From Candidatus Zambryskiibacteriota bacterium (GTDB taxonomy: Bacteria > Patescibacteriota > Minisyncoccia > Phycocordibacterales > WO2-35-19): 64,000 nt of DNA. The stretch's first letter is position 1. Each line of letters starts with the position of its first letter. A program made the translations under genes and the position numbers. This document shows positions 2,445 to 46,221 of this stretch, piece by piece. Location: the NCBI GenBank assembly GCA_963840745.1, contig CAWJAC010000006.1:97947-161946 (forward strand), read 5' to 3'. Below the pieces are notes generated by a model that made no database searches, was not told the DNA's origin, and worked only from the letters and a program-made list of their open reading frames with translations.

Positions 2445-5195
2445 ATGGAATACAAATTTCCTTTGCCAAAAGCTCCTTTTGAAAATCCTGAGGAAGAGAT
2501 TTCTCACCTGCGTAAATTAATTGCTGAGAAAGAAAAGGATTTGGAGGATATTGGTTTAAAAAAAGAAACTCTGACGCCAGCCAGAGAAGTGCTGGCACAA
2601 TATAAGGTAACTTCGGTCACCGGGACGCTTCATCCCGAATACGAGATAAAAAAAGAAGAAGTTGAAAAAATAGCTTTAAAACTTTCTCCCGAGGAGCATG
2701 ACAAACAGATAAATGAACTTGTAAAATTAGCCAAAGAAAAAGGCATTAAAAATGCCCTTTCGGTGGTGGAAAAAATGGCAAATTTCCATATCACCGATGA
2801 TTTCCACAGGTTTATTTCCGAATATTTGAAAGAGGGTTTTACTATCTCCGGCATGGATGCCAAAGAAAAAATTTCCAAAGGTCTCAATATGTCCCTTTAT
2901 GAAATTTTAATACCAGAGGAATCTGACAAAGATAATATCAAATCCAGCCTGGAAGAAGTAATTTCCGGTATGGAGCAATTTTATTCTGGCATGCTGTCCA
3001 TTTCCGACTCCGATAAAAAGGCAGAGAGCTGGATGTCACTAGAGATTGCCAACGCCAACTTTTCACAAGAAATAGTTTTTTATGTAGCTGTGCCAACCTC
3101 GAGGAAAAATCTTTTTGAAAAACAAATTCTTTCGGTATTCCATAATGCCAAAATTACCGAGAAGCCAGATGATTACAATATTTTCAATGAGACGGGACAA
3201 ACCGCCGGTGTTTCTGCTGCATTTACCAAAAATCCTATTTATCCCATAAAAACTTATGAGAGTTTTATGCACGATCCGCTCAACGCCATCCTTTCGTCCT
3301 TTTCAAAAGTAAACAGGGATGGGGAGGGGGCGGCTATACAGCTTATTTGGTCTCCAGTTGGAGATAAATATGTTAAAAAATACAAGGATGCTTTAGATAA
3401 AATACAAAAAGGCACGCCACTCAAAGAAGCCATAGATATACCAGATAGCGTCCCAGGGGAAATTTTTCACACCTTTAAAGATGTTTTTGGATCTTCAAAA
3501 ACAAAAGATAAAGAAAAGGAAGGGGAAAAATCTGAACCTATTGATCAGGGCGCCATTGAAGAAATCAGGCGCAAGATAGCGGCGCCCATAGTTAGGTGTA
3601 ATTTGAGGCTTCTGGCTTCTTCCACTACCACAGAGGAAGCTGATGAGATTGTAAATAGCCTCAAATCAAGCTTCAACCAGTTTGACAATACATTGGGCAA
3701 TTCTCTTAAATGGAAAAAGGCCGAAAAGGGAGATTTGCGCAGCTTAGTAAAAAATTTCAGCTTCCGCATTTTTGACGACAATGCCGCTTTGCCTATGAAC
3801 TTGCGGGAAGTAACCAGCATTATACATTTCCAAACTAAAGCAGTCAGCGCCTCCGAAGGCTTACGGCAATCTCGATCGGCTACGGCTCCGGCGCCGCTCG
3901 ATATAGGCAAAGAAGGAATACTGCTTGGAATAAATAATCACCGCAATATCGGCACAGAAATAAGAATGACCGAAGACGACCGGCTGAGACATTTTTATTG
4001 TATAGGGCAAACTGGCACCGGCAAAACCACTCTTCTTAAAGAAATGATTATTCAGGATATGCAAGCGGGTCACGGCGTTTGTATGATTGATCCTCACGGT
4101 TCTGATCTTCAAGATGTCATAGCGAATGTGCCGCTCGATCGTTTCGACGATGTTATTTATTTTGATCCAGCTTACACACAGAGGCCGATGGCGCTCAATA
4201 TGCTTGAATTTGATGAAAATTTTCCCGAGCAAAAAACTTTCGTAGTCAACGAACTTTTCAGCATTTTCCAAAAGCTTTATGGCGCTATCCCAGAATCAAT
4301 GGGCCCGGCTTTTGAGCAATATTTCAGAAACTCGGCGCTTCTCGTTATGGAAGATCCGAGCTCGGGCAATACTTTGGTTGATATGTCGCGAGTGCTTTCA
4401 GACAAAACTTATAGGAATTTTAAAATAACTAAATGCAAAAATCCTTTGGTCAAACAATTTTGGATTAATGCCGAAAAAACAACCGGTGAGCAAGGTTTGG
4501 CCAACTATGTCCAGTATGTTACCAACAAATTTGATGTGTTTTTGGCAAACGAAATTATGCGGCCGGTTATCGCTCAAGAAAAATCATCATTCAATTTCCG
4601 CGACATAATGGATAATAAAAAAATTCTGCTGGTCAATCTTTCCAAAGGCCGTCTGGGAGACATTAATGCCAATTTAATCGGTCTTGTTTTGGTAGGCAAA
4701 ATTTTGATCGCGGCTCTTTCTCGGGTGGATATGTTTGGCGGAGATTTCCCACCTTTTTATCTTTACATAGACGAATTTCAAAATATAACCACTGATTCCA
4801 TTTCCACCATTCTTTCCGAGGCTAGAAAATACAAACTTTCCCTCAATATTGCTCACCAGTTTATCGCTCAGTTGGAAGAGGGGATTCGCGAGGCCGTTTT
4901 CGGCAATGTTGGCTCAATCTGCGCTTTTAGAGTTGGCGCCGAAGATTCGGAAACTCTGGAAAACCAATTTACTCCCACTTTTTCCAAAAGCGATTTGATG
5001 AACATAGACAATCGCAATGCCTACTTGCGTCTCTTGGTGAACGGCAAGCCGGCCAAGCCTTTTAATATTGAAGTGCCTCCGCCGCCGCAGGGCAACAGAG
5101 ATCAGATAGAAAAATTAAAAGAAATGTCATATCTCAAATATGGCAGACCTCGCGAAGAAGTAGAAAAATTGATTTTGGAGAAATATAAAATATAA
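2445..5195 (+). CDS. VirD4/TraD/TraG-like (type IV coupling protein-like) P-loop ATPase with a large soluble N-terminal domain
   Basis: 916 aa. Walker A GQTGTGKTTLL and Walker B-like FYLYIDEFQN. The C-terminal half resembles the TraD/TraG/AAA_10 NTPase core. No N-terminal TM helices, and no T4SS genes nearby. Confidence 0.7.
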   Translation: MEYKFPLPKAPFENPEEEISHLRKLIAEKEKDLEDIGLKKETLTPAREVLAQYKVTSVTGTLHPEYEIKKEEVEKIALKLSPEEHDKQINELVKLAKEKGIKNALSVVEKMANFHITDDFHRFISEYLKEGFTISGMDAKEKISKGLNMSLYEILIPEESDKDNIKSSLEEVISGMEQFYSGMLSISDSDKKAESWMSLEIANANFSQEIVFYVAVPTSRKNLFEKQILSVFHNAKITEKPDDYNIFNETGQTAGVSAAFTKNPIYPIKTYESFMHDPLNAILSSFSKVNRDGEGAAIQLIWSPVGDKYVKKYKDALDKIQKGTPLKEAIDIPDSVPGEIFHTFKDVFGSSKTKDKEKEGEKSEPIDQGAIEEIRRKIAAPIVRCNLRLLASSTTTEEADEIVNSLKSSFNQFDNTLGNSLKWKKAEKGDLRSLVKNFSFRIFDDNAALPMNLREVTSIIHFQTKAVSASEGLRQSRSATAPAPLDIGKEGILLGINNHRNIGTEIRMTEDDRLRHFYCIGQTGTGKTTLLKEMIIQDMQAGHGVCMIDPHGSDLQDVIANVPLDRFDDVIYFDPAYTQRPMALNMLEFDENFPEQKTFVVNELFSIFQKLYGAIPESMGPAFEQYFRNSALLVMEDPSSGNTLVDMSRVLSDKTYRNFKITKCKNPLVKQFWINAEKTTGEQGLANYVQYVTNKFDVFLANEIMRPVIAQEKSSFNFRDIMDNKKILLVNLSKGRLGDINANLIGLVLVGKILIAALSRVDMFGGDFPPFYLYIDEFQNITTDSISTILSEARKYKLSLNIAHQFIAQLEEGIREAVFGNVGSICAFRVGAEDSETLENQFTPTFSKSDLMNIDNRNAYLRLLVNGKPAKPFNIEVPPPPQGNRDQIEKLKEMSYLKYGRPREEVEKLILEKYKI

Positions 5196-5220: not shown

Positions 5221-5252
5221 CCCGACTAGCAAAACGCACATTGCTAGTCGGG
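5221..5252. terminator. Hairpin between convergent genes (bidirectional terminator candidate)
   Basis: cccgactagcaa / ttgctagtcggg forms a 12-bp stem, preceded by an A-run on the + strand. Confidence 0.5.
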
Positions 5253-5567
5253 GTATTGAGGAAGAGGGGCGACGGGAAATAAATCCGTCTGCTGAGGTGG
5301 GAGCCCTTTTGTATACTTGGGCGGGTGTTTTTGTTGCCGCGCCCGTAGTAAGCTTCCTACTTGGATCCTGACCATGTTTAGGATTTCAGGATCGTAAATT
5401 TCTGAATTGCGGAACGCCTTGCCAAACGCGTCCCGGAAACTGACACCAGTCCTCACTTCGGAGGCAACGGTGTCAGCCAGAATATCCAGATGTTGTCTGT
5501 ATTCCTCAGAATCTATGCTTATCAACATTCTGATTTCTATTATACACCCAAGCACCTGTTTTGTCAA
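5244..5567 (-). CDS. Hypothetical protein (GC-richer orphan)
   Basis: 107-aa ORF with no recognisable motif. Visibly higher GC than its surroundings. Confidence 0.4.
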   Translation of the reverse strand: MTKQVLGCIIEIRMLISIDSEEYRQHLDILADTVASEVRTGVSFRDAFGKAFRNSEIYDPEILNMVRIQVGSLLRARQQKHPPKYTKGLPPQQTDLFPVAPLPQYPD

Positions 5568-5587
5568 CTAGCGTGTGGACAACTCTA

Positions 5588-42442: not shown

Positions 42443-43114
42443 ATGGTCGGCATGACCATAAATTTAAAAGCTGAAAAAAGAGAAAGGATAGGGAAATTAG
42501 AGAGTTTAAGGAAAGCGGGTTTTATGCCGGCGGTTTATTATGGACACAAAAAAGAGTCAACTCCTATTCAAATTAAAAAAATTGATTTTTTAAAAGCTTG
42601 GAAAAATGCCGGTGAATCCACCGTTATTAAATTAGAAACTCCGGATGGCGATTTGGAAGCCCTTATTCATGATGTGGATTTAGATCCAATTACGGATGAA
42701 CCGAGGCATGCTGATTTTTACGTTTTTGAAAAAGGTCATAAGGTTGAGATCGCGGTGCCTTTGGAGTTCATTGGGATTTCCCCAGCTGTCAAAGATTTGG
42801 GTGGAGTGCTTATGAAAATTTTGCATGAAGTTAAAGTTTCAGCCGAACCTTCTAATTTGCCTCACCAGATTGAGGTTGATATTTCTCCTATTACCGAGCT
42901 TGAAGGACAGATTTTGGCCAAAGATATTTCCTTGCCGAAAGGAGTTCTACTTATGGAAAATCCTGAAGAAGTGATTGCGACTGTGGCCACCCCTAAGGCA
43001 GAAGAAAAAGTAGAAGAAGCTCCGGCCGACCTCTCTTCAATAGAAGTTGAAAAGAAGGGTAAGAAGGAAGAAGAAGGAGAGGGAATCAGAAAACCATTGT
43101 CTACTAGAAACTGA
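42443..43114 (+). CDS. rplY: Ribosomal protein L25/Ctc
   Basis: LRKAGFMPAVYYG, plus a Ctc-type C-terminal domain and an acidic tail. Confidence 0.85.
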   Translation: MVGMTINLKAEKRERIGKLESLRKAGFMPAVYYGHKKESTPIQIKKIDFLKAWKNAGESTVIKLETPDGDLEALIHDVDLDPITDEPRHADFYVFEKGHKVEIAVPLEFIGISPAVKDLGGVLMKILHEVKVSAEPSNLPHQIEVDISPITELEGQILAKDISLPKGVLLMENPEEVIATVATPKAEEKVEEAPADLSSIEVEKKGKKEEEGEGIRKPLSTRN

Positions 43115-43156: not shown

Positions 43157-44546
43157 ATGAAAAAATATAGTTTTATTTTTGGTATTTTTCTGTTTTCTGT
43201 TTTCTGTTTTCTGTCACCTGTTACTATGCTCTGCCCAAATGACCGATGCCCAAAAAACAGCGCAAGAGGCACAGTGGCAAGCCGAACTTGATGCTACCGA
43301 AAAGGAAATCGCTCAGTGGCAGAGCGTGCTTGATCAAACAAAAAAGGGTACTGCTTCTCTCCAAAATGACGCGGCAGTTTTGCAAGCCAAAATAAACGAA
43401 GCAAAAGCTTTTATAAAACAAAGACAGATTCAAATACAGCAACTAACCAGCCAGATTGATTTAAAAACTGCGACCATTGCTCAACTTGAAGATCAGATAA
43501 ACAAGGGCAAAGAGTCATTGGCCGCCATTTTAAGGTCAACTAACGAGATTGATTCTTATTCACTTCCCGAAGTGGTGCTTTCGGATCAAAATCTATCAGA
43601 ATTTTTCACCGATATTGATTCTTACAATTCTATAAAAACTTCTCTGCAGGATAAATTTAAAGAAATAAGGGATTTGGAGACAAAAACAAATACAGAGAGA
43701 GTAGCTCTTGACCAAGCAAGAACAAATGAAGTAGATACGAAAGCTGAAATGGAAACCCAGCAAAAGAAAGTACAGATTGACGAGGCTCAGAAGCAACAAC
43801 TTATAACCATAAATAAAACTCAAGAAAAAACTTACGCCCAGGTTATTGCCGATAAGCAGGCTAAAGCCGCTCAAATCAGAGCCGCTCTCTTCTCTTTGCG
43901 CGACACTCAGGGTATTCCATTCGGAGATGCTCTCAAATATGCCACTTCAGCATCTCAAAAAACGGGAGTAAATACTGCTCTCATTCTTGCCATCCTCACC
44001 CAAGAATCAGATTTGGGCAAAAATCAAGGTTCCTGTTTAATTTCAAGTCTTGATACCGGTGACGGGGTTGGGAAAAACACAGGCACCATCTTCCAGCAGG
44101 TAATGAAGGCGCCGCGAGATACCGTACCATTCCAGAATATAACAAATAGATTTGGTATGGATTGGAAAATGACTCCTGTTTCTTGCCCTCCGGGAACTAT
44201 TTGGAGCTCTAGCAGAGGTTATGGAGGTGCTATGGGGCCATCACAATTCATACCTTCCACTTGGGAAGGTAATGGCTCGACTTATCTTGGTATAAAAACC
44301 GAGGTCGGTAATGTTATGAGTGTAGATCCAAATATTGTAAACCCGTGGAATCCCGAACATGCCATATTGGCCACAGCTGTTTACATGGCAGATTTGGGTG
44401 CAAACAGCAGCAGTTATACTGCTCAAATCAAGGCTGCCTGCAAGTATTACGGCACCGGCGGCTCGTCATGCAGTTACGGCAAGCAAGTTATGGCAAAGGC
44501 GGATAACATTCAATTGACTATGATTGATCCTCTGCAGGGATTATAA
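43157..44546 (+). CDS. Secreted coiled-coil protein with a C-terminal lytic transglycosylase (MltB/Slt-like) domain; the signal peptide is out of frame as sequenced
   Basis: TQESDLG (catalytic Glu) and GAMGPSQFIPSTWE. The ATG at 43157 encodes MKKYSFIFGIFLF but is in a different frame from the 43179-44546 ORF. Confidence 0.75.
43186..43213 (+). repeat. Heptanucleotide microsatellite (ttttctg) x4 inside the signal-peptide coding region
   Basis: Four perfect tandem 7-nt units. Loss of one unit puts the ATG at 43157 in frame with the main ORF. Confidence 0.9.
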
Positions 44547-44663
44547 AAATGTTACATTTGTGTAAAAATGTAACAAAATAATTGATCAATAAAAAACTGG
44601 TGTTAAAATATGGCTTAAAATAAAGCTATTTTGACTTATCCCCAATTTAAATTGATTCAACAC

Positions 44664-44691
44664 TTGACATTTTTTGTGGGTTTGATATATT
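44664..44691 (+). promoter_or_regulatory. Strong sigma70-type promoter (extended -10)
   Basis: TTGACA, 16-nt spacer containing TG, TATATT. Confidence 0.65.
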
Positions 44692-44695
44692 TGTG

Positions 44696-45027
44696 GACGG
44701 AAGAAGTAAACCAAATTTCCAACAAAACGAGGAGTACAGAGGGATGAAGACCCTTGCTAGTTTCCACGGCGGCAGTTCGGTTCGCTTTTGTTTGCTGTCC
44801 CGCCCGATGTGCGGGATGAGCGTTTTGTCAGTTCGTCAACTTTGATCGAGAAACGGGCAGCACAATGCTGACCCAGACTTCCTGTGTTTGTCCTAAATGC
44901 GGAAACCTTAGCCGGAGAGCGAAAGCTTATATGGATAGTTGTAGGAAATTCCGTCATGATCACGAACCTCGATCTCTCGAAAAAAAAGAATCAAGGCCGT
45001 TCAAACTACGAGTTTGCGGCCTTTTCT
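44696..45027 (+). ncRNA. Candidate structured RNA of unknown class (alternatively small Cys-rich ORFs)
   Basis: GC-rich island in a 500-nt gap, bounded by a promoter and a terminator. Long-range pairings: 44696-44700/44951-44955, 44714-44720/44944-44950, 44722-44729/44821-44828. Local hairpins: 44798-44816 and a GNRA hairpin at 44917-44928. Terminator hairpin 44993-45023 followed by TTTT. Confidence 0.4.
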
Positions 45028-45048
45028 AGTATATGCTAATATGTTTAT

Positions 45049-45288
45049 ATGAAAACAGAAATACACCCACAATATTATACTGACGCCAAAGTGAGCTGCT
45101 CTTGCGGCAATAAATTTACTGTTGGAAGCACTCAAAAGGAAATAAAGGTGGAAATTTGCAGCGCTTGCCACCCGTTCTTTACCGGCAATGAAAAAGTGAT
45201 TGACGCCGCCGGCCGAGTTGAGAGATTCAAAGCTCGCAAAGCTTTAGCTAAAACTCCAAAAACCAAAACTTCTAAATTGAAGAAATAA
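45049..45288 (+). CDS. rpmE: Ribosomal protein L31 (Zn-ribbon type)
   Basis: [10 protein letters not shown]...CSCGN...[10 protein letters not shown]. Confidence 0.95.
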
Positions 45289-45333: not shown

Positions 45334-46221
45334 ATGAATTTAGAAAAATACAAACAGAATCCCAAGACCAAATATTTGGCAGAAAGTTTGGAACGACTCA
45401 TTAAAGAGGGGGTTGACGTTTTGACGCAAGAGGTCCTGATAAAACAGATGGATGACATTTTAAATGAAGAGGAGCGCAAACAAAAAGAAGAAGAGGAATT
45501 TCCTAATGAAATAGTTTTGGAGGTGCGAGCGGGCGTGGGCGGCGAAGAAGCGGCTCTTTTTGCCGAAGAACTTGCCAATATGTACCGCAAATATGCCGAC
45601 TCTCGCGGCTGGACCGTTTCCATTATAGACGAAGCATTCTCGCCGCTTGGCGGATACAAAGAAGCTTCTTTTGAAATACGCGGTAAGGATGTTTATAAGG
45701 AATTGCGATATGAGACAGGCATACATAGAATACAAAGGGTACCCGAGACTGAAAAAATGGGCAGGGTGCATACTTCAACTGCATCAGTGGCGATATTGCC
45801 CATCCGCAAAAAAACAAAATTTGAAATTAACCCAGCCGATCTGGAAGTTGAATTTTCCCGTTCCGGCGGTAAGGGAGGCCAAAACGTAAATAAAGTAGAA
45901 ACCGCTGTTCGCCTGACCCATAAACCAACAGGCTTGGTGGTGAGATCAACATCTGAAAGAAGCCAGAGTGCCAATAAAGAAATAGCCTTGATGATTCTTT
46001 CAGCAAAACTTGAGGAAAAACAAAGAGCCGAAGAAGACGCAAAATATTCTGCTGATCGCAAAGAACAAATAGGTTTAGCTGATCGCTCCGAGAAAATAAG
46101 AACTTATAACATACTTCAAGATAGAATTACCGACCATCGGTTAAATAAAAACTGGCACGGCATAGAAAATATAATGAAAGGCCAGATGGGCAGTATCATT
46201 GACGCATTTAAGCAAATTTGA
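45334..46221 (+). CDS. prfA: Peptide chain release factor 1 (short form, 295 aa)
   Basis: GGQ motif ([11 protein letters not shown]). The RF1-type tripeptide region reads [14 protein letters not shown]. Confidence 0.85.

Follow-up and report, generated by a model that had tools for sequence, protein, structure and literature searches.

A predicted transcription unit between TG and rpmE

A candidate small RNA gene is described here from a 64,000-nucleotide (nt) stretch of a Candidatus Zambryskiibacteriota genome (assembly GCA_963840745.1, contig CAWJAC010000006.1, positions 97,947 to 161,946 of the forward strand), hereafter the window. The candidate RNA unit is housed in the 502-nt gap between a gene named TG here, which encodes a coiled-coil peptidoglycan hydrolase or transglycosylase of 455 amino acids (aa) (43179-44546, + strand), and rpmE, which encodes ribosomal protein L31 (45049-45288, + strand). 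An L25/Ctc gene (42443-43114, + strand) precedes TG, and rpmE is followed by prfA (45334-46221, + strand), encoding release factor 1 (RF1), and then by rpsB, tsf and a tRNA-Thr gene; all genes near the unit are on the + strand, and its neighbourhood is one of translation genes (L31, RF1, S2 and EF-Ts). The RF1 of the window has 90% identity to its counterpart in a metagenome-assembled genome labelled 'Patescibacteria group bacterium', and many of the relatives are labelled Zambryskibacteria, Paceibacteria or Taylorbacteria. This RF1 is 295 aa long, compared with 314-320 aa in complete gene calls of relatives; the normal length of RF1 is about 360 aa.

The unit is predicted to extend from 44664 to 45026. 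It opens with a sigma-70-type promoter on the + strand, made up of TTGACA (44664-44669), a 16-nt spacer that includes TG, and TATATT (44686-44691), elements that had already been pointed out in a preliminary description prepared from the DNA letters and a list of their open reading frames (ORFs); the promoter matches the consensus at 11 of 12 positions and is the top-scoring site of the region. Transcription is predicted to start at about 44697-44699. An intrinsic terminator, AAGGCCG-TT-CAAACT-ACG-AGTTTG-CGGCCTT with a T-rich tail recorded both as TTTC and as TTTTC (44993-45026, + strand), ends the unit; its hairpin (44993-45023, 7 bp plus 6 bp, -14.4 kcal/mol) was identified by folding and was not flagged by a consensus terminator scan, and it bears out the strong terminator that had been proposed at this place. 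About 330 nt of moderately GC-rich sequence lie between promoter and terminator. The earlier wording, 'conspicuously GC-rich', is apt relative to the AT-rich spacer (GC content 0.47-0.54 in the unit and 0.23-0.29 in the surrounding spacer) but overstated relative to nearby coding DNA (about 0.40-0.45).

Past the terminator, and outside the unit, lies a predicted promoter of rpmE (45014-45051, + strand) with an extended -10 element, TGCTAATAT, whose hexamer (45037-45042) is 6 nt from the ATG at 45049. The pattern TTGnnn-17-TGTTATAYT stands exactly 6 nt before the rpmE ATG in most relatives, with and without the unit (equivalents at the matching position are found in L001, L005, L006, L085, L086 and L164-L166, where L numbers denote relatives' loci). 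There is no Shine-Dalgarno (SD) sequence before this ATG, and because the promoter ends 6 nt before it, the rpmE mRNA appears to be leaderless. In three loci a palindromic insert of about 75 nt, resembling a miniature inverted-repeat transposable element (MITE), lies between the rpmE promoter and the ATG (L003, ~3725-3795; L083, which is the same as L002, ~2640-2715; L088, ~2585-2655); it has the form ATGAA|TCCCGTTAGAAGTT...AACTTCTAACGGG|ATGAAAAC, in which ATGAA resembles a target-site duplication, and it would give the otherwise leaderless mRNA a large 5' hairpin.

Distribution and module turnover in relatives

Relatives' loci were gathered through RF1 scans of species-representative genomes and metagenome contigs, together with contigs encoding TG homologs. 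The TG-rpmE neighbourhood is widespread in the loci collected, with a gap of 21-1117 nt, and the unit is present in 21 distinct related Patescibacteria genomes, 24 units in total, always in this gap; in all 21 genomes L31 is at least 84% identical to that of the window. A -35 box TTGAC[A/G/T] occurs in 24/24 units (19 TTGACA, 4 TTGACG and 1 TTGACT), as does a -10 box, usually TG-extended. The layout in relatives consists of an upstream block (often with TTATCCACA), the promoter, a body of 118-508 nt, a long hairpin followed by T's, and the rpmE promoter, and GC-rich terminator stems of differing sequence stand at the equivalent position in nearly all units. Two complete tandem units, each with its own promoter, body and terminator, are found in L084 (545-1620), L088 (2109-2546) and L162 (2841-3426), the units of L084 being designated L084A and L084B. 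This retention of promoter and terminator at the equivalent place, with no coding signature between them, agrees with the earlier prediction of a separate transcription unit that codes for no protein. The predicted family is confined to Zambryskibacteria-like Patescibacteria, between TG and rpmE, and is previously undescribed.

An alignment along most of the window unit is obtained with L005 only (nhmmer E = 6e-20); the other units have blocks of 20-130 nt in common in varying combinations, and their bodies are mosaic and mostly unalignable. The 5' module of the window unit is common to L084A, L166, L170 and L009, and its 3' module to L084B and L164; the window unit looks as though the 5' module of L084A had been joined to the 3' module of L084B. 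Blocks of 34-128 nt are 81-91% identical between genomes that share modules and have flanking genes of about 80% nucleotide identity, and the closest pair, L084 and L170 (TG 89% identical), still differs by whole modules. L001 (~3600-3650) and L171 (~3035-3090), the units of which are otherwise different, share a pseudoknot-like stretch, GGTCACC..CCGGGGA..GGTGAC..TCCCGG, at 88% identity over 52 nt. L083 has a terminator-like remnant only.

Neither blastn nor a covariance model of the 3' domain described below (R1) revealed a second copy of the unit in the window or in the collected loci. A look-alike on the minus strand at ~5535-5575 was rejected as a second unit, its promoter being that of an unremarkable ORF of about 95 aa; this stretch (~5245-5575) has the same layout, with a TTGTCCACA box, TTGACA and TGTATAAT, followed by an ATG 10 nt after the -10 box, and it ends in a strong terminator. 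It resembles an ordinary gene for a small protein whose leader is very short. A phage origin of the unit was likewise rejected: blastn gave no match in phage records, and pattern scans of viral contigs gave chance matches within coding DNA.

Two further elements lie upstream of the promoter. A perfectly complementary inverted repeat of 10 nt, TGTTACATTT / AAATGTAACA (44550-44575), may be an operator or the relic of a duplicated extended -10 element; its half-site ATGTAACAT is also found 5' of the unit promoter in eight distinct relatives (among them L001, L003, L083, L084, L086, L166 and L170), and the repeat takes the form TGTTACAGCTGTAACA in L164. A conserved block (44612-44644, + strand) consists of a weak hairpin, GGCTTAAAATAAAGCT, and a DnaA-box-like sequence, TTATCCCCA (44636-44644); it can be aligned in L001, L002, L003, L005 and L086, and the second unit of L084 carries a duplicate of the hairpin and box. 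With one mismatch allowed, the DnaA-box consensus TTATCCACA has 33 sites in the window, compared with 16 expected (others are at, for example, 2073, 5574, 33379 and 41536), and many of the sites examined are intergenic and just 5' of sigma-70-like promoters. In this organism the motif seems to be a site generally associated with promoters and not an origin marker; a replication origin at the unit was rejected because the motif is common near promoters of the window and there is no GC-skew switch.

The preliminary description had recognized no known RNA family by eye, and systematic scans concur. Rfam 15 at the gathering threshold identified only tRNAs in the window and ten loci, Rfam at E<=10 gave only spurious microRNA and small nucleolar RNA matches in stretches of 521 nt and 1181 nt, and ARAGORN, run on the window and on 19 loci that carry the unit, detected no transfer-messenger RNA (tmRNA). 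No description of such an RNA, and no regulatory RNA of Candidate Phyla Radiation bacteria, was found in the literature searched; to our knowledge, no regulatory RNA that could be named has been described for these bacteria. The size of the unit, its strong promoter and its terminator would suit a housekeeping RNA (6S RNA, tmRNA, RNase P RNA or signal recognition particle RNA) so diverged that current models miss it, and 6S RNA is poorly conserved in sequence. This explanation is nevertheless highly improbable, given the lack of an Rfam match even at the permissive threshold on short stretches, the negative ARAGORN result, the absence of the unit from close relatives and its doubling in others, and predicted folds that are multi-branched and not rod-like with a central bubble.

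Coding potential, start-codon element and folding

The unit of the window contains a micro-ORF of 33 codons behind an SD-like motif (44744-44845, + strand), the peptide of which is not conserved, and a second ORF, of 54 aa, from 44865. The preliminary description had offered these as Cys-rich ORFs (the second counted as 55 aa) and possibly as one gene broken by an indel; both ORFs exist, but the broken gene has to be abandoned. Homologs of the 33-codon ORF comprise 5 codons in L166, 26 in L170, 18 in L084A and 4 in L009, because frameshifts occur inside conserved nucleotides: the blocks GGAG[G/T]ACAG and GTTAGTTTCC are kept in this module while the frame shifts. One extra G in L166 results in MKDPC*, and an extra T in L084B places an in-frame TAG in the 54-aa ORF, within a block that is 91% identical. 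In ten pairwise alignments, indels are mainly of 1, 2 or 4 nt and mismatches are distributed evenly over the three codon phases, showing no codon-like substitution pattern; the segments matched by tblastx recur in every frame and on either strand, and the four ORFs searched have no Pfam match. With the ORF not kept open in homologs and the substitutions not phased by codon, protein coding by the predicted unit is rejected.

The beginning of the micro-ORF fares differently from its peptide. The GAGGAG ribosome-binding site that had been pointed out before ATG 44744 turns out to represent a family-wide arrangement, for an SD-like motif followed at 3-11 nt by ATG, GTG or TTG is present in 17/24 units (6.7+-2.1 in shuffled sequences, 0/1000), and with ATG alone in 11 units (2.9 shuffled). 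The first 130 nt contain an SD-like pentamer in 20/23 units (11.1+-2.4 shuffled, 0/2000; 10 on the opposite strand), and strict GGAGG or AAGGAG is found in 13 units (4.5 shuffled; 3 on the opposite strand); given that an SD-like motif is present, the start codon is enriched to 17 compared with 12.4 (16/1000). Because several units share ancestry, these counts stem from closer to ten than to 24 independent lineages. The predicted folds of most units pair the SD-like purines with a pyrimidine run further downstream (CCUCC, UCUCC or UUUCC) and place the start codon inside the loop or close to it. The ORFs that follow are of 4-33 codons (median 14), near random expectation, and encode unrelated peptides. 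Their stop codons are mixed (7 TGA, 6 TAG and 3 TAA), and a leader that senses RF1 was rejected on this account.

The conserved SD-like motif and ATG raise the possibility that the transcript is the mRNA of a small protein or peptide, perhaps a type I toxin or a dual-function small RNA (sRNA), the broken Cys-rich gene included. Type I toxin mRNAs have a paired SD sequence and patchy, sometimes tandem loci; the present units, too, are predicted to pair the SD-like motif with downstream pyrimidines and have a patchy, at times tandem occurrence. L011 and L086 share ..GDLT(P)GP.. by eye, with changes at third codon positions only. Against this stand peptides as unrelated and as short (4-33 aa) as random sequence would yield, the frameshifts within conserved blocks, the unphased mismatches, the frame-neutral tblastx matches, the lack of Pfam matches, and peptides in which no hydrophobic helix was seen by eye. 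A peptide product is accordingly very unlikely.

The start-codon element of the window is embedded in a module, M2 (44726-44772, + strand), defined by an alignment of five units. Its SD-like GAGGAG (44728-44733) pairs with UUCC around a hairpin, AGGG-AUGAAGA-CCCU, that carries ATG 44744, and its 3' end is the conserved GCTAGTTTCC. The outer pairing is GGAG/UUCC, and the innermost pair of the hairpin alternates between G-C and C-G. In the five units 97.8% of alignment cells are paired, compared with 37-71% in slid controls; three pairs have changes in both partners, with covariation scoring 0.44 versus 0.22 shuffled (0/500). In four relatives without the 3' domain of the window, an invariant loop of 13 nt, GGCTAGGTGTAWT, is borne on stems with three distinct sequences (CTCCC/GGGGG, CCTCAG/CTGAGG and CCGAAGA/TCTCGG), with a covariation score of 0.83 versus 0.24 shuffled (0/500). 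Pairing of this loop with codons 4-6 of rpmE was considered and rejected, for the 8-nt match does not covary.

The 3' domain (44841-44985, + strand) is common to the window, L164, L084A, L084B and L005 and is collinear among them. It is flanked by the strands GATCGAG/TCGAGA (44844-44851) and CTCGATC/TCTCGA (44968-44980), and contains the hairpin GGG-CAGCA-CAA-TGCTG-A-CCC (44855-44874, + strand) and the block TTAGCC-[GAGC GAAA GCTT]-GGATAGTTG (44908-44941, + strand), of which the hairpin occupies 44917-44928. When the window unit, L005 and L084A are folded singly, each closes the domain by TCGAG/CTCGA strands. The hairpin after AACGGG has stems of CAGCA/TGCTG, GGCA/TGCC, CGGC/GCCG or GGC/GCC, and the hairpin between TTAGCC and GGATAGTT reads GAGC-GAAA-GCTT in the window but, in L084B, GAGC-GGAA-GCTC. 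The stems are out of register between sequences. The covariance model R1 matches only its own five units, and in the alignment fitted to it 71% of cells are paired, compared with 35-49% when the partners are slid. RNAalifold proposes a competing GAGAG/CTCTC helix in this domain, and several mutually exclusive GAGA/UCUC pairings are possible in the unit RNA.

Other helices that had been suggested from the window alone have a mixed record. The closing helix of a domain of about 260 nt does correspond to an inverted repeat (I2, 44714-25/44939-50), but its z-score is -1.2 and it is not kept in the four relatives that share the 3' domain; its GACGG strand, said to start at the predicted transcription start, has its first G outside a transcript that begins at ~44697-44699. 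The ACAAAACG/CGTTTTGT helix is likewise an existing repeat (I10, 44722-29/44821-28), without comparative or thermodynamic support in a stretch found only in the window. Both local hairpins that had been listed exist; GAGC-GAAA-GCTT is compensated in L084B as described, but TCCCGC-CCGATGT-GCGGGA (44798-44816, + strand), which appears in the minimum free energy (MFE) fold and was flagged as terminator-like, lies in a stretch unique to the window and has no counterpart in relatives. The preliminary description was right in its general idea, but its specific fold is not supported and its broken-gene alternative is not right.

This combination of elements also fits a cis-acting, ribosome-mediated attenuator, in which translation of the micro-ORF would decide between termination and read-through into rpmE-prfA-rpsB-tsf; if so, expression of translation genes would be tied to translation capacity. 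A short ORF whose start codon follows an SD-like motif and whose peptide is not conserved, a structured RNA with mutually exclusive pairings, and a terminator that adjoins the translation-gene cluster in every unit-bearing genome match the layout of such leaders, which makes the attenuator a serious rival and the main alternative mechanism. It is still unlikely. The predicted promoter of rpmE, conserved past the terminator at its fixed 6 nt from the ATG in genomes with and without the unit, would free the downstream genes from dependence on read-through, and three genomes have complete tandem units with promoters of their own. The sole antiterminator candidate in the window, I3 (44758-70/44996-45008), was by eye unmatched in the three M2-bearing relatives examined (L166, L084A and L170); the ORF of the window stops about 150 nt short of the terminator; and the stop codons are mixed.

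Interpretation and comparison with known systems

The comparative evidence suggests that 44664-45026 is probably an independent small gene with an RNA product of about 330 nt and no protein product, belonging to a fast-evolving modular family in a narrow clade of Parcubacteria. In the tiny genomes of Candidate Phyla Radiation bacteria, where intergenic gaps are very short, a non-coding unit of 300-1100 nt under a near-consensus promoter is likely to serve some purpose. If real, the family would be a concrete, testable group of sRNAs in an uncultured phylum, and would exemplify an RNA gene whose body is reshuffled around constant expression signals and an SD-AUG element.

Several observations weigh against this reading. 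The unit is missing in close relatives, namely L082 (RF1 85% identical), L085/L167-169, L090, L163 and L008, where the gap is 21-57 nt, and L007 (gap of ~90 nt), and this patchy loss marks it as dispensable. Besides the terminator, no motif is common to all units. The window copy is no more stably folded than its shuffles (MFE z-score of -1.48 against dinucleotide and -0.5 against mononucleotide shuffles; the opposite strand scores -0.86) and is among the weakest of the family, in which the mean z-score is -3.9 (-2.1 without the terminator) and 12/23 units are below -2. Covariation, significant for M2, is not so for the 3' domain (0.16 versus 0.13 shuffled, 72/500, with five sequences), and because each module set comprises only 4-5 sequences related by descent, the shuffle tests overstate significance. 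Predicted duplexes with the starts of rpmE and prfA are no better than those of shuffled units (mean z of +0.3 and -0.2), and the collected loci contain no complement of the GGCTAGGTGTAWT loop. The case is thus limited by a narrow distribution, a dispensable unit and the lack of a functional lead.

Patchy loss and the weak folding of the window copy keep alive another explanation, that the unit is a non-functional or decaying leftover of insertion or duplication at a recombination-prone spot, where promoter and terminator persist and the transcript has no role. The tandem copies, the mosaic structure even between genomes with TG 89% identical, and the MITE-like inserts in three loci are in keeping with it. 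It is rather improbable in light of the very short intergenic gaps of these genomes (among them gaps of 44-57 nt where the unit is missing), blocks of 81-91% identity between genomes with flanking genes at about 80%, compensatory changes in stems, and enrichment of the SD-like motif and start codon on one strand only.

As to how the proposed RNA gene might work, it is conceivable, though somewhat less than an even bet, that the product is a trans-acting or decoy-type regulatory RNA; this mode is favoured because the rpmE promoter follows the terminator, tandem units have promoters of their own, and no conserved antiterminator was seen. The RNA would act through binding of the ribosome (30S) or of a protein at its hairpin modules, and the micro-ORF would matter by being translated, not through its peptide. 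A more specific and speculative version, to which we give little credence, is a ribosome-engaging decoy in which a sequestered SD-AUG and interchangeable modules tune the availability of 30S subunits or initiation factors, or take part in an arms race with phages or with the host of these episymbionts. Such a clade-specific RNA, presumed to be highly expressed, would have its modules shuffled, duplicated and lost at one housekeeping locus, and rapid module turnover beside a constant promoter, SD-AUG and terminator would then be due to the decoy function or the arms race.

Among known systems, the unit is most like a leader-peptide attenuator or a dual-function or sponge sRNA, yet it lacks defining features of each. 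Leader-peptide attenuators (trp, his and antibiotic-sensing) similarly have a promoter, an SD sequence and start codon (an arrangement present in 17/24 units here), a short ORF whose peptide is unconserved, a structured RNA, and a terminator 5' of an operon. The unit differs from them in that its downstream gene has a promoter of its own, that units occur in tandem with their own promoters, that no conserved antiterminator was found, and that the ORF is far from the terminator and without runs of regulatory codons. Dual-function sRNAs (SgrS/SgrT, RNAIII/hld and SR1/SR1P) share the independent promoter and terminator, a structured RNA of 150-500 nt and a small ORF, but they have a conserved peptide and a known seed, whereas the units encode unrelated peptides, and neither a conserved seed nor a target emerged.

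Protein-sequestering sRNAs (CsrB/RsmZ and 6S RNA) resemble the unit in that their hairpins vary in number, their length and sequence turn over rapidly, a palindrome lies 5' of their strong promoter, and their terminator is rho-independent; unlike them, the family has no common loop motif and no Rfam match. GGA motifs, the hallmark of CsrB/RsmZ, number ~7-8 in the window unit by an eye count, versus roughly 5 expected. Type I toxin mRNAs (hok, tisB and ibs) have comparable structured transcripts of 200-400 nt, a sequestered SD sequence and patchy or tandem intergenic loci, but the unit encodes no conserved hydrophobic peptide and its ORFs are as short as 4-5 codons; the opposite strand, where an antisense RNA would have to start, has only a single weak promoter-like site (9/12; 45055-45028, minus strand). 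Orphan structured RNAs such as the raiA motif RNA were also found by sequence alone as GC-enriched intergenic islands with their own promoter and terminator; the unit matches none of those in Rfam 15, and its family shows far lower conservation and a much more restricted range. In its predicted promoter and terminator, its lack of a conserved ORF and its maintenance in relatives, the unit has the generic features of an independent sRNA gene.

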